A stretch of DNA of 64,000 bases, taken from contig NC_057724.1 in the NCBI RefSeq assembly GCF_004010195.1, positions 44,140,624-44,204,623 on the forward strand. The letters run 5' to 3'. Source of the stretch: Chiloscyllium plagiosum (Eukaryota). Of the stretch, positions 1 through 24,942 are shown piece by piece; within the stretch, counting starts at the first letter, position 1; each line of letters starts with the position of its first letter. Both the position numbers and the translations under genes were made by a program. Under the pieces are notes generated by a model. The model searched no databases. It saw only the letters and a program-made list of their open reading frames with translations, and was not told where the DNA came from.

Positions 1-1762
1 GCCCACGGGTCCTAGTCTCCCCACCTAACGGAAACAACTTCCCAGCGTCCACCCTTTCTAAGTCATGCATTATCTTGTAAGTTTCTACTAGACCTCCCTT
101 CAACCTTCTAAATGCTAATGAATACAATCCCAAGATCCTCAGCCGTTCATCATATGTTAGGTCTACCATTCCAGGGATCATCCATGTGAATCTCTGCTAG
201 ACACGCTCCGGTGCCAGTATGTCCTTCCTAAGGTGCGGGGCCCAAAATCGGACACAGTATTCTAAATGGAGCATAACTAGAGCTTTATGAAGTCTCAGTA
301 GCACATCGCTGCTTTTATATTCCAACCCTCTTGAGATAAATGACAACATTACATTTGCTTCTTAACCATGGGCTCAACCTGCACGTCAACCTTTAGAGAA
401 TCCTAGACTCTTTATACTTTGCCTTTATGAATTTTCTCACCATTTAGAAAATAGTCCATGCCTGTATTCCTTTTTCCAAAGTGCAAGACTTCACATTTGC
501 TCACGTTGAATTTCATCAGCCATTTCCTGGACCACTCTCCTAAACTGTCTAAATCTTTCTGCAGCCTCCCCACTTCCTCAGTGCTACCTGCCTGTCCACC
601 TAACTTTGTATTATCAGTGAACTTTGCCAGAATGCCCCCTGTCCCTTCATCTAGATCATTAAAGATAAAGTGAACAGCTGCGGCCCCAACACTGAACACT
701 GCAGGACACCACTTCTCATAGGCTGTCATTCCGAAAAAAAACCTTTTATCCCAACTCTCTGCCCTCTGTCGTGCAGTCAATCCTTAATCTATGCCAGTAG
801 CTCATCTCAAACACCATGAGCCCTCAACTTACTCACCAGCCTCCTGTGAGGCACCTGATCAAAGGCCTTTTGGAAGTCTAGATAGATAACACTGGGTTTC
901 CCTGATCTAATCTACTTGTTACCACCTTTAAAAAATTCTAACAGGTTTGTCAGGCACAACCTCCCCTTAACAAATCCATGCTGACTTGTTCTAATCCAAC
1001 CCAGCATTTCCAAGAATTTAAAAATCTCATCCTTAACAATGGATTCTAGAATTTTACCTACAACCGAGGTTAGGCTAATTGGCCTATAATTTTCCATCTT
1101 TTGTCTTGATCCTTTCTTGACCAAGAAGTTTACAACAGTGGTCTTCCAATCATCCGGGACTTTCCCTGACTCCAGTGATTTTTGAAAGATCACAACCCAT
1201 GCGTCTGCTATTTCCTCAGCCACCTCTCTCAGAACTCTAGGATGTAGCCCATCAAGGCCAGGGGTTTTATCAATTTTTAGACCTTTTAGCTTTTCTAGTA
1301 CTTTCTCTTTTGTATTGGCCACCATACTCAGCTCTGCCCCTTGACTCTCTTTAATATTTGGGATATTTCTCATGCCTTCCACTGTGAAGACTGACACAAA
1401 GTATTTATTAAGTTCTTCAGCTATTTCCTTATGTCCCATCACTAGTCTTCCTGCATCAATTTGAAGCAGCCCAATTTCTACTTTTGCCTCTCGTTTGTTT
1501 CTTATATATTGAAAGAAACTTTTTACTATCATTTCTAATATTACTGGCTAGCTTACCTCAATATTTGATCCTCTCCTTCCTTATTTCTCTCTTTGGTATC
1601 CTCTGTTTGTTTTTGTATTCTTCCCAATCTTATGATTTCCCAGTGCTCTTGGCCATTTTATAGGCTCTCTCTTTTTCTTTGATATATTTCTTGACTTCCA
1701 TTGTCAACCATGGCTGTCTAATTCCACCCCACCCCCACCTCCGGATAATATTTCTTTTCTGT
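1..1762 (-). mobile_element. CR1-type LINE ORF2 (RT) remnant
   Basis: ORFs 912-1532 (PGLDGLHPRVLRE, NYRPISLTSVVGKILE, QHGF..GRLCLTNLLEFF) and 412-780 (KFTDNTKLGG, FNVSKCEVLHFG); frameshifted. Confidence 0.9.
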
Positions 1763-19315: not shown

Positions 19316-20321
19316 CTTGTGGAAAGAAAGCGAAGTTAGCCCTTCAGATTCAGGGACTCTTCTTCAGAAAATAACTATGTTATTTTGTTCTACAGTGTGA
19401 TGCTGCAGTGGGAGATTAGAGACAGACCTGCCTGTTCCCATCCTCTAACGATGAAATCTTGGAGATCTCCAATGACTGCAATTTCTTCTTTTTGCTGCTC
19501 CTTCAAGTGCAATCTCTTGCCTATTGGTGCCATGGTGTGGGTTACACTTATTTGAGATGTCACCACTCACAACAGTCTCCAATGCTGACTATCTTGAGTT
19601 ACACACTCTATGAAAATGCTTGTAACTCCTGCCTTTCTAGATAATCTGGATGGCCATCCAAGTGCCATCCTGACTACTTTGTGGAAAGTACAATCCAGGA
19701 AAGTGTTACTCTCCCTGAGGCACGGCTTCAGCTATCACTTTAGCACAGAAGTCTGAGCTCAAATTCGAATGGTTAAAGATACTTCCGACACAAATGACCA
19801 CCCAAAACACGTGGAATGTCCTGAAGTTTCACAAGCAGCAGAAATTGCAAACAGCAAGTCTCAGATGCCTGACCATGAACTAAAAATAAGGTCCATTTCC
19901 TCTTTTAGAAACTAATTAGTATTTTGCTTAAAATATTTTAATTAATGCTTCTGGACCTGATCTGTGCTATTGCTCTTTTAATTCATTTACCTCATGCTGA
20001 ATGAGATGTTTAATTTTCTGTCTTGTATTTTGACTAGAGAAATGTTCATCAACCACTCAGTTAACTGTAATCCAGTGTTGAGACACTGATCTTTTTTCCT
20101 CGAACATGGTCCGTCTGCTTAGTGACCCGAGTGCTTTGTACCTCCTCCCATTTCTACTACAGCTAATGAATAAAAGTAGAAAAGCGATGACAGAAAGTGT
20201 CTTTGGAAGCCGTTTCACACAATCCACAGATGGTTTTCATCCTCAGGTATTCATTAAGATTTTCATTAATGAAAATAGCTTCAAAGATTAGGAACGTAAA
20301 ATAGCGTGACCTCAAAAGCTA

Positions 20322-20526
20322 TGATTTGGAGATGCTGGTGTTGGACTGGGGTGTACAAAGTTAAAAATCACACAACACCAGGATATAGTCCAACAGGTTT
20401 AATTGGAAGCACACTAGCTTTCAGAGCGTCGCTCCTTCATCACCTGATGAAGAAGTGAAGCTCTGAAAGCTAGTGTGCTTCCAATTAAACCTGTTGAACT
20501 ATTACCCTGTTTTGTTTGATTTTTAA
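20322..20526. mobile_element. Palindromic PLE-derived miniature insertion with 11-bp TSD
   Basis: CTCAAAAGCTA at 20311-20321 and 20527-20537; inverted arms ~20360-20527 centred at 20443/20444. Confidence 0.85.
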
Positions 20527-21453
20527 CTCAAAAGCTAAGCAGCTTAAAACTTTCATCCAGTTGCTGGGTGCAGCTGCCATGGTTCACACCAGGTGGCAGC
20601 AGAGATCCACTCCTGTTCTTTCCAACAGGCTCAGGCTATAGCCTACATGGCAGATGGTAATCACGTTGTCCATCTTTTTTTTAGCTAAGTCTGAGTTGTG
20701 TTGAGCTTTTTCGAGGAATTCCCAGTACAAGACCTAACAAGCTTTTTGACCATACATTACCAAACTTGCTGTTAGCTGTTTTATCTAACTACTCTGCCGT
20801 TATGATGTCTGTCACTTCTAATTCTGACCCCATTACACCTTCTGCCAATCCAAGATCAACTCACTACTTGACAGTTATCCAGCGAAAGACTGGCATCCCT
20901 TGCACTGGCACCACCTTTGAAAGGCTGCTGTGCACCCTGACGAGTATTGTCCCACACCAGCAACATGATTGCACACCAGCCACAAAGCCACATTAGTCAC
21001 AACATATTCATGGCAAAGGCTGGCACTGTTTCACAAATACTCATCTCCCATTCTCTCAGCTTAGTCACAGTGTAACCACCAGCCACTCTACACTCTACCT
21101 GTCCATAGGTACATTCTGTTTGAACACCCTCTAAGTCAGCAGAACCCTATCCCCACTGTAGACCCTCGTATGGAGTATGGAGACATCACACGCAGGCATG
21201 TAATCGGACAAATACAAAGGTGACTTTGTAATTACAGAAAGCACAAGTAATCGCAAAGAAAACCAATAGTTGCTGAGGTTCACCCTGACAAAGGAAACCA
21301 TATTTTGGCATCATGAACAACAAATATTTTACAGTCCATGATGGTCTATTGCACCCAGCTGTCATCTCTTGAAAGCAGGTGTCAGTGATATTCTGTCTGG
21401 CTTACAGTGCCTGACACACCCGACCTCTATCAGGGACAACTGTAGCTTCTTAC

Positions 21454-21496
21454 AGGTTCCTGATGAAGGGCTTTTGCCCGAAACGTCGATTGTCCT
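21454..21496 (+). ncRNA. Minimal type I hammerhead ribozyme motif (intact core)
   Basis: CTGATGA(21460-66)-A-GGGC-TTTT-GCCC-GAAA(21480-83)-CGTC; palindromic ACGT in place of stem III; predicted cleavage after GUC (21487). Activity untested. Confidence 0.75.
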
Positions 21497-21547
21497 GCCC
21501 TTCGGATGCTGCCTGACCTGCTGTGCTTTTCCAGCTCCACACTCTCG
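21454..21547 (+). mobile_element. 94-bp PLE-derived insertion carrying a minimal hammerhead; 15-bp TSD with one mismatch
   Basis: ACTGTAGCTTCTTAC (21439-21453) and ACTGTAGCTTCCTAC (21548-21562). Confidence 0.85.
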
Positions 21548-21842
21548 ACTGTAGCTTCCTACTAATGATCCTCATTGGTGATAACAAACCTGCAATCTGC
21601 ATCAGCCAGGAAGCTGCAAAATAGCACCATGAGCTATTGTCATCGTGGTCTTACGTCTCATTGGGTACAGCACTGAAAATTAAGCCCCATTATTCCTGGA
21701 GTTGTCACAAAAGTTCACAATTTTACCAAGTATTCAAAATTCTTCAATTTATCTGTCCTTTTAGACCAAAGTTAACAGAAAGCACAACAAGGTTTCTGTA
21801 CTTTATATGGGCTACTATTATTTTAAACAGAACACCAGAGAG

Positions 21843-22175
21843 ATGCTCCTTTATCAGGTGATTGTCATAAGTTGACAATAGATTTCCCCGCAGTGATAAT
21901 ATTGTCTACTGTGGTTCCAGGGCAGGCTTTGCTATTACTGGTAAGAATGCCAAGCTTCTCCAGTTTTTTGTCCTTGGCATGTATGTGGTGTAGTTTTGTT
22001 GCCTTGTCTGTTTGGCAATGTCACGTCATTGTACTGATGTACTGACAATCACCTGATGAAGGTGCGTCGCTCCGAAAGCTAGTGTGCTTCCAATTAACCC
22101 TGTTAGACTATAACCTGGTGTTGTGTGATTTTTAACTTTGTACACCCCAGTCCAACACCGGCATCTCCAAATCAT
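21843..22175. mobile_element. Rearranged PLE fragment: inverted partial terminal repeat, ORF-start piece and terminal repeat
   Basis: 21843-21866 is the reverse complement of ~22044-22068; the minus strand between them reads TAGKSIVNL (VNLS-like PLE N-terminus); 22050-22175 is homologous to the element at 20322-20526. Confidence 0.7.
22050..22084 (+). ncRNA. Minimal hammerhead ribozyme motif, second family
   Basis: CAC-CTGATGA(22053-59)-A-GGTGC-GTC-GCTCC-GAAA(22074-77)-GCTA-GTG; stem I CAC/GTG; palindromic AGCT; one stem II mismatch. Confidence 0.7.
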
Positions 22176-22399
22176 GCTTTCAATAAGTACACCAAATCCT
22201 TTTTTAATCATTTGCTTTTAAAACGATCCTTTCCCTGTTTCAGTCCATAATCAAAATACAGAAAAATAAGTAGACCTGATCTTTACAGTTGGTAAATCTT
22301 TTCCCCTGATAACAAGCTTTGTAACACACCTGGAGCCTCAAATATACCAGATGCTCAAAATTGCTCCTTGAGCCTCAAATACCCCTGCAGCCTGAGATG

Positions 22400-23140
22400 G
22401 AGCAGGTACACAAGTTGCTCCAGGATGTCGGAGTCAGGGCAGGTACCAGGTAGTGAGCCCATACCTCCTGGAAGTGTAATGGAACCCTTTCCTTTTGATG
22501 AATTCTGCAGCATTGTGATACAGTCCTCTCAGTGTCACGTGTGTGCAGTCAATGGCACCCCCCTGTACCTGGGGGAAGGTAGCTATATTTCTGAATGTGA
22601 CTGACCATCCTAACCTCTTCATAAGGAACACAATGAACCAGTGTGATTTTGCAGAATTAGCATTCGTCGCTGTCCTGATATATTTGTGGGTGCAAAACTG
22701 AGAGATGCCACACAGGTCACTCATCATGCCCTGGAAGGAGACAGTAGCATAAAATTTCAGTGCCACTGTGAACTTCACGGTGACCAGGAGAGGATGGCCT
22801 CCTGCTCCTGCCGCCCTCAGGTTCCACATCAGCATCCGATGTAGTTTGTCACAGTGTCCCAGGACAATTGGGGTTTGCATCAGCGCGGTAGTCAGTGCCA
22901 GAAAATACTGGGCGTCCTTCAGACCTCACACATCCTGAGGGACCGTGCAGCAGTGAAACCTCCCTGAGTTTGTTGCACCTCTTCCTCCCTGTCAGCCTGT
23001 TGCTGTTCCTGGGCTTCTCCCAGCCTTGGTCCTCCAGTATCTCTCTTTACCTTCTTAGGTAGCAGCCGCAATGACCAAATGCCACCCACGACCAGACCCA
23101 TGGCTTTCAGCGGAAATGTCCTAAAATGGAGCAGAAGAAA
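22400..23140 (-). mobile_element. PIF/Harbinger transposase relic
   Basis: ORF 22434-22880: VALKFYATVSFQ..SDLCGISQ ... FPQVQGGAIDCTHV ... FIKRKGFH (HARBI1-family GAIDCTH and NRKGFHS motifs); truncated before the remaining catalytic residues. Confidence 0.85.
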
Positions 23141-24569: not shown

Positions 24570-24942
24570 GGATTTCACCAATTTCCTAATTTCCCCTCCC
24601 CCCACCTTATCCCAGATCCAACCTTCCAGTTCAGCACTGCCCTCAAGACCTGTCCTACCTGACCATCTTCCTTCCCACCTAGCCGCTCCACCCTCCTCTC
24701 TGACCTATCACCCTTACCCCCACCTCCATCTATCTATTGCACTGTCAGCTACCTTGCCCCCAGCCCCAACCCCCTCCCACTTACCTCTCCATCTCCTCGG
24801 CTCACACCTCATTCCTGATGAAGGGCTTCTGCCAGAAACGTTGATTCTCCTTCTCCTCGGATGCTGTCTGATTTGCTGTGCTTTTCCAGCACCAAACGCT
24901 TGACTCTCATCTCAAGCAACTGCAGTCCTCACTTTTGCTTTA
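24570..24942 (+). mobile_element. PLE 3' end with pyrimidine-rich tract and hammerhead motif
   Basis: CTGATGA(24815-21)-A-GGGC-TTCT-GCCA-GAAA(24835-38)-CGTT; the downstream sequence matches 21488-21547. Confidence 0.8.

Follow-up and report, generated by a model that had tools for sequence, protein, structure and literature searches.

Insertions of endonuclease-positive Penelope-like elements (PLEs) such as Pen2a_Av are reported to comprise a pLTR, an optional tail of 30–40 nt and an inverted, 5′-truncated arm, enclosed by a short target-site duplication (TSD) (PMC3846280; PMC8557442); inverted arm, one-sided tail, palindromic junction and TSD are all already described in these two sources. 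For Poseidon of Anolis carolinensis (PAc), PMC11167929 describes cutting and extension of both target strands, with RT initiating at two internal positions that delimit the tail; uncleaved RNA is reported as the main substrate, with hammerhead mutants inserting normally, and hammerhead cleavage needs the PLE protein. In D. virilis, the transcript is reported to start inside the upstream pLTR (PMC2377424). The minimal type I hammerheads of metazoan PLEs are described as mostly dispersed singles from truncated PLEs (PMC4209133), and retrozymes have already been described as PLE derivatives (10.64898/2026.07.22.740005).

Against this background, we analyzed an insert of 94 nt (21454–21547) in a 64-kb window of shark DNA (the whole stretch studied, 64,000 nt of Chiloscyllium plagiosum). 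It is a pLTR stub of an endonuclease-positive PLE rather than a demonstrated separate mobile unit. In the following, coordinates given as +n or −n are relative to the initial C of CTGATGA (window position 21460 = 0), “arm” denotes one pLTR segment, and “unit” one insertion, single or head-to-head. The insert lies on the plus strand between 15-bp direct repeats with one mismatch. The left copy, ACTGTAGCTTCTTAC (21439–21453), is part of an older dispersed repeat forming the left flank; the right copy, ACTGTAGCTTCCTAC (21548–21562), agrees with it at 14 of 15 positions and is not extendable. At the 5′ junction stands a 3-nt filler, AGG (21454–21456), which is not family sequence, long copies reading TCA there. 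It is followed by a tail-less pLTR end piece in sense orientation (21457–21547), which begins 3 nt ahead of the core and stops at the first 3′ end site. In all, the insert is the last 91 nt of a pLTR plus the filler, with neither ORF nor clear second arm nor tail. Past its 3′ end the family sequence reads CTCG-ACT-CTGATC, and ACT (21548–21550; +88 to +90) is common to the element and the start of the right repeat, forming a 3-nt overlap at the putative priming end.

The piece contains a minimal type I hammerhead motif (21460–21487, plus strand), consisting of CUGAUGA, an extra A, a 4-bp stem II closed by a UUUU loop (GGGC-TTTT-GCCC, 21468–21479) and GAAACGUC with a palindromic ACGU; GAAAC-GTC precedes C17, and by the motif definition of PMC4209133 cleavage is predicted after C21487 (C17). 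A preceding reading of the sequence alone (the sequence-only reading) had described a 15-bp repeat with one mismatch around 94 nt, a core beginning 6 nt into the insert, a perfect GGGC-UUUU-GCCC stem and GAAAC-GUC, all of which we found in the sequence, with C17 at 21487.

The insert is the pLTR end fragment of an abundant PLE encoding RT and GIY-YIG. Its family yielded 2164 first-look candidates; among the 40 that were scored, the closest non-self match had 96% identity over 90 nt, and near-identical sisters were absent. Copies that extend further upstream code for RT motifs and a GIY-YIG-like region as well as a CX4CxxC linker. The linker, CHRRKCKTC in copy L013, fits the CX2-5CxxC that precedes the GIY-YIG domain, which is given as a Neptune feature common to Nematis (PMC8557442); judged by this linker, the element would be placed with Neptune or Nematis, unlike PAc. 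Pfam returned no match for the ORF pieces of L013, which are too broken. A search for homologues of the ORF found 14, among which RVT_1 and GIY-YIG are represented; the best is a Chiloscyllium punctatum protein with 71% identity.

ORF and hammerhead segment are linked at the level of loci. Among 20 loci selected solely through the ORF end (the query's own locus included), 19 ran into the hammerhead segment; by eye, 11 had the ~35-nt tail and 8 stopped near +90 like the present copy. Of the loci chosen by the ORF N-terminus, which hold runs of N, 20/20 ended in the hammerhead segment. Open frames of 900–1200 aa were rejected as intact source ORFs, as they span runs of N. L221 and L224 have a leader in common, into which the tail runs: L221 holds a 5′ remnant running into the ORF as well as a 3′ copy, and in L224 the 3′ copy runs into the same leader. 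As these two loci show, the segment occupies the 5′ as well as the 3′ end of the transcription unit. The first ATG of L221 comes after the tail, 38 nt past it, unlike in PAc, whose first ATG lies in the hammerhead. Two ORF-bearing units carry exact duplications, of 15 bp in L219:2812–5815 (oriented), where a 3-kb arm is joined to a 105-nt inverted arm, and of 16 bp in L221:2129–5951 (oriented); the third, L224, shows none because it continues in tandem. In the copies tested, ORF-bearing elements share both 3′ ends and the duplication length with the short copies.

In its architecture the shark element resembles endonuclease-positive PLEs such as Pen2a_Av: an ORF with RT followed by GIY-YIG, a hammerhead in the pLTR, a tail of ~35 nt at one end only, head-to-head arms, a TSD, and a pLTR plus tail running into the ORF start. 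It differs from the rotifer examples, for which PMC3846280 and PMC8557442 give TSDs of 8–10 bp, in that shark TSDs are mostly 14–17 bp long, and from the endonuclease-positive examples in the extent of truncation: the present copy retains only the last 91 nt of the pLTR, and such stubs are the majority in the shark (99/164 units are short singles or short-short pairs). A longer copy of the family, with C-rich upstream pLTR and tail and a mismatched stem II, lies at ~24640–24935 of the window.

A repeat of this kind is uncommon in the window yet not unique, since six pairs of 15-mers with at most one mismatch lie 60–200 nt apart, this locus included. The 15-bp repeat is nevertheless a real TSD, because it is in register with both fragment ends and because duplications occur elsewhere in the family. 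We detected them in 36/47 inverted units, mostly 14–17 bp long, vs 7/489 in the shifted-flank control. Among short single copies a duplication was present in 16/73, some of them doubtful, which suggests that many short singles arose or decayed differently. In one contig of organism B, a T at 21559 would make the right copy identical (15/15) to the left copy of the window.

The insertion is older than the splits from organisms B and C, because contigs of both carry it. Left-junction contigs of B (from two studies) and C run from unique flank into the insert by 27–28 nt, slightly short of the 31-letter threshold of the tool; at the right junction, the contigs include 25 nt (B) and 10 nt (C) of the insert. 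Compared with the locus, the left-junction contigs of B and C show 16–18 substitutions in ~480 nt of flank plus insert. The empty site that the sequence-only reading had proposed to look for in related sharks did not turn up among the listed contig joints of organisms B and C, which carry the insert instead. In one further contig of organism B, alignment to the right flank does not begin until 21567 and is preceded by 323 unaligned bases; this contig may represent another insertion or allele.

The left flank itself (21279–21453) is an older dispersed repeat with 162 first-look candidates of 70–88% identity. Its paralogues align through one copy of the 15-mer, and by eye 0/14 had a PLE piece after it, an observation that we do not count as evidence. 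A paralogous empty site within this repeat was considered and rejected: the right-flank continuation was no better than in controls (91/300 equal or better). In minus-strand translation, these paralogues show a CCALxN-like motif, which presumably recalls Harbinger-type transposases.

To take a census of ends, we built a profile from 19 natural copies, its ends fuzzy by several bases, and ran it over 120 stretches of 10 kb at fixed coordinates (1.2 Mb, divided into 800 kb of discovery and 400 kb of replication sequence). Of 258 segments, 199 reached at least 40 bits; the 59 below this score were kept only as partners of a stronger arm. This gave 164 units, 117 single and 47 head-to-head, with 211 arms. 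Extrapolated to the genome, these numbers correspond to ~500,000 units, among them ~190,000 short singles and ~76,000 that are short, single and tail-less.

The 5′ ends pile up at the hammerhead. Of all arms, 118/211 start at −18 to +9 (78/141 in discovery, 40/70 in replication), a zone ~28 nt wide as judged from fuzzy HMM ends, vs six at −46 to −19 and six at +10 to +24. Across the 800 kb of discovery sequence, the stop rate per base amounted to 0.020 within −18 to +9 and to 0.001–0.005 elsewhere. The fixed pile-up of ends that the sequence-only reading had named as its check is therefore present and recurred in the second 400 kb. Plain random 5′ truncation of a PLE copy, a process given as typical of PLEs in PMC8557442, would agree with the 54/211 arms that reach beyond −46 and end at scattered positions; a stop rate ~4- to 16-fold higher in a 28-nt window, replicated in an independent sample, makes it a very improbable account of the stubs. 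This would change only if the profile ends were artefacts caused by subfamilies that the profile does not represent; in a comparison with a 40-copy library, 1/40 short copies had pLTR sequence further upstream.

The 3′ ends cluster near +89 and +124, ~35 nt apart. Inverted pairs combine one tailed and one tail-less arm in 44 of the 45 classifiable cases (12/12 in the replicate). Long and short arms also go together, with 38 short-short, six long-long and three mixed pairs (p = 2e-5 pooled; p = 0.15 for the replicate alone). Two arms belonging to one insertion resemble each other more closely than arms taken from separate insertions do (0.88 vs 0.80; 22 pairs), which fits one source and also gene conversion.

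Why the 5′ ends lie where they do can be read in two ways that share the element and its enzymes. In one, the RNA runs on upstream and the pile-up comes from structure, RT stalling at a hairpin or the cDNA joining at a palindrome. An imperfect hairpin that can be read from long copies, AAGCC-TCAT / ATGA-AG-GGCTT, overlaps both pile-up and core; it is the MFE fold in L063, the 5′ peak is broad, and PMC3846280 reports palindromes at inverted PLE junctions. The hairpin is, however, not the MFE fold in 3/4 long copies tested, and short arms joined to unrelated ORF sequence still end at 0 and −25 (L200 and L194). The correspondence of arm lengths within pairs also speaks against a structural stop, although shared timing could produce it as well. 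We regard such a stop as possible, on the doubtful side. In the other reading, the pile-up marks the transcript start, and the stubs result from priming in the 5′ pLTR followed by run-off. We give this about even odds and prefer it, because the segment stands at the RNA 5′ end in the two loci above, because arms are short or long together, and because short arms end there beside ORF sequence.

Fixed ends and the ~190,000 short singles obtained by extrapolation could also suggest an independent SINE-like or retrozyme-like mini-element, in which short masters give rise to short hammerhead-headed RNAs that are mobilized in trans by the PLE protein. Non-autonomous PLE derivatives are indeed reported (PMC8557442; 10.64898/2026.07.22.740005), and the insert resembles non-LTR retrozymes in being non-coding, in its type I hammerhead and in its relation to PLE pLTRs; dispersed monomers occur there, too (10.64898/2026.07.22.740005). 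Active retrozymes are described in the same source as head-to-tail tandems with at least two hammerheads, in contrast to the single TSD-flanked copy here: there is no head-to-tail hammerhead array, and the next same-strand core lies at 24815, 3.35 kb away. A tRNA-derived head is absent from 20000–23000 (0 ARAGORN genes), and Rfam gave no tRNA, 5S or 7SL match at the locus; apart from 3 nt, the insert is PLE-derived. The best non-self match of 96% over 90 nt among the 40 scored copies argues against a young clade from this copy. Far-upstream duplications, a sign of 5′ transduction, occurred in 2/49 short copies vs 2/147 in the control, so that 5′ transduction is not established. A separate SINE or retrozyme is not needed, because ORF-bearing copies share ends and duplication length with the short ones and extra pLTR sequence upstream was found in only 1/40 short copies (against a 40-copy library); we consider a mini-element unlikely. 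The PLE origin proposed by the sequence-only reading stands, the mini-element it had offered as the alternative is not needed, and truncation at random is the wrong description. A bacterial promoter scan was empty, its bacterial model being irrelevant to the shark.

The insert was probably made by the nuclease and RT of the PLE itself, through staggered nicks, internal priming and a stop before the uncut hammerhead. The element's nuclease would nick the two target strands ~15 bp apart, the duplication reflecting the stagger; RT would start inside the RNA ~90 nt past the hammerhead, the two 3′ clusters representing two start sites; and copying would stop just upstream of the uncut hammerhead, at what is probably the RNA 5′ end. 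In head-to-head copies, both target ends would prime, one at each RNA site. At this locus, priming would have occurred at the first site, with the ACT overlap to the target, and the second arm would be absent or at most 3 nt long. Staggered nicking and internal priming are transferred here from the Anolis element (PMC11167929). The shark element resembles PAc in having two putative RT start sites ~90–125 nt past the hammerhead that bound the tail, and presumably also in extending both target strands and using uncleaved RNA (PMC11167929). That source reports no bulk difference in start sites between the strands of PAc, whereas single events in the shark pair both sites (44/45), and this one-tail rule suggests one site per strand.

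Carried further, every integration would be a double priming event, with nicks ~15 bp apart and one priming at each of the sites that bound the tail, and priming in the 5′ pLTR would lead to run-off before the uncleaved hammerhead. We put the chance of this general scheme at a little under one half. If true, roughly half a million insertions would form a fossil map of transcription start and PLE dimer geometry, and at the present locus synthesis of the tail-primed arm would have broken off after no more than 3 nt.

The AGG filler bears on this point, as an inverted arm primed at the tail would begin with the same three bases. It may be a 3-nt remnant of such an arm or may stem from fold-back synthesis off the target end; three bases alone do not decide between these origins. 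In another short copy, L096, the junction filler of 8 nt matches a stretch of that copy's duplication in reverse complement. The flank, the left duplication and the start of the insert (21429–21465) fold into one DNA hairpin (z = −3.0), as a fold-back origin of the filler would allow, and a junction hairpin as good was found in 2/56 other short copies.

RNA data were also inspected. Reads on a long family copy (3708, both strands, one run) showed no end pile-up, in a polyA single-cell library that is poorly suited for this purpose, and no RNA carrying this locus was among the RNA matches listed. A splice acceptor at −8 was considered and rejected, as the loose end seen in 234 RNA reads consists of genomic sequence flanking an expressed copy, L192. 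This tailed stub (L192:~1520–1650, minus strand of that locus) starts at −8 or −9, is well expressed and likely lies inside a host transcript.

Most arms keep the whole core, which argues that templates were copied uncleaved. Arm starts at +25 to +32, around the cleavage site (11/211 vs 15 in 30 flanking positions), show a small excess, several of them explainable by an AT overlap with the inverted arm; a few templates may have been cleaved.

As to the ribozyme at this locus, the motif shares with the minimal type I hammerheads of metazoan PLEs described in PMC4209133 the core CUGANGA / GAAA / UH, an extra base after A9, the G10.1–C11.1 pair, a palindromic 15–16 region (ACGU) and the lack of helix III. 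A search of Rfam with E values up to 10 found no hammerhead family here. In place of a helix I of 4–6 bp, there are 2 bp and a U-U mismatch, unlike the trematode examples with 4–5 bp in PMC4209133. The sequence-only reading had proposed a bulged stem I involving AGG; these bases are present, although they are not family sequence and the stem adds ~0 kcal/mol (−8.0 with it vs −7.9 for stem II alone). The 44-mer has an MFE of −13.4 with its core paired.

The local sequence also departs from the motifs of PMC4209133 in a variant predicted to break helix II. GCCCTTC (21497–21503, plus strand) is complementary to GAAGGGC (21465–21471), so that stem II is predicted to be displaced by this pairing. 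In contexts of 94 and 124 nt, helix II is predicted not to form (probability 0.04–0.06); in 201 nt, stem II is predicted at 0.69 and the core pairs with the flank. The predicted probability of the first stem II pair is 0.06 here, vs at least 0.74 in 40/44 arms with an intact core. The CCCTTC variant is rare, being found in 0/146 scorable sampled arms and in three of the best-hit loci.

These models predict that the ribozyme at this locus is misfolded and inert, and the locus is likely an ordinary dead stub. Its core bases are all intact, its stem II is perfect and the insert was retained in three species, as one would expect of a live self-cleaving ribozyme kept in place. Intact cores are, however, common in the family (44/147 sampled arms), and retention across species ~3–4% apart is expected of neutral DNA. 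In addition, the motif has no stem III, and PMC4209133 reports that single minimal hammerheads did not cleave in vitro; the Anolis hammerhead depends on the PLE protein (PMC11167929); and besides the predicted displacement of stem II, the co-folded dimer has an MFE structure in which the core is paired in a non-hammerhead fold. We therefore hold a live ribozyme here to be highly improbable. Having been put forward as the best candidate for one, this copy is by prediction one of the poorest folders.

Taken alone, the locus is ordinary and matters mainly as one record of how this class of PLEs inserts. The family statistics bear on how PLEs form tails and inverted arms and on the purpose of the hammerhead, and they supply figures that the existing in vitro system can test: a stagger of 14–17 bp, one start site per strand per event, and an end just upstream of the uncut ribozyme. 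We did not find the strict pairing or the 5′ pile-up stated in the PLE literature searched, where the supplements of PMC11167929 and PMC8557442 may bear on both; PMC6155905 contributed nothing specific. The statistics also caution that minimal hammerheads in shark DNA, even if they look intact, are mostly passengers of PLE stubs.

The window also contains a second family with a hammerhead motif. At 20315–20528, with a core at 20444, a head-to-head pair of one long and one short arm shows the same one-sided-tail pattern and is flanked on both sides by CTCAAAAGCTA. Rfam matches to MIR860 and MIR845 at 20387–20501 were rejected, as they are below the gathering score and are explained by the palindrome of this pair. 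A single copy of the second family, starting 5 nt before CTGATGA, lies at 22048–22175, and a 30-nt fragment of it is found on the minus strand at 21838–21867.
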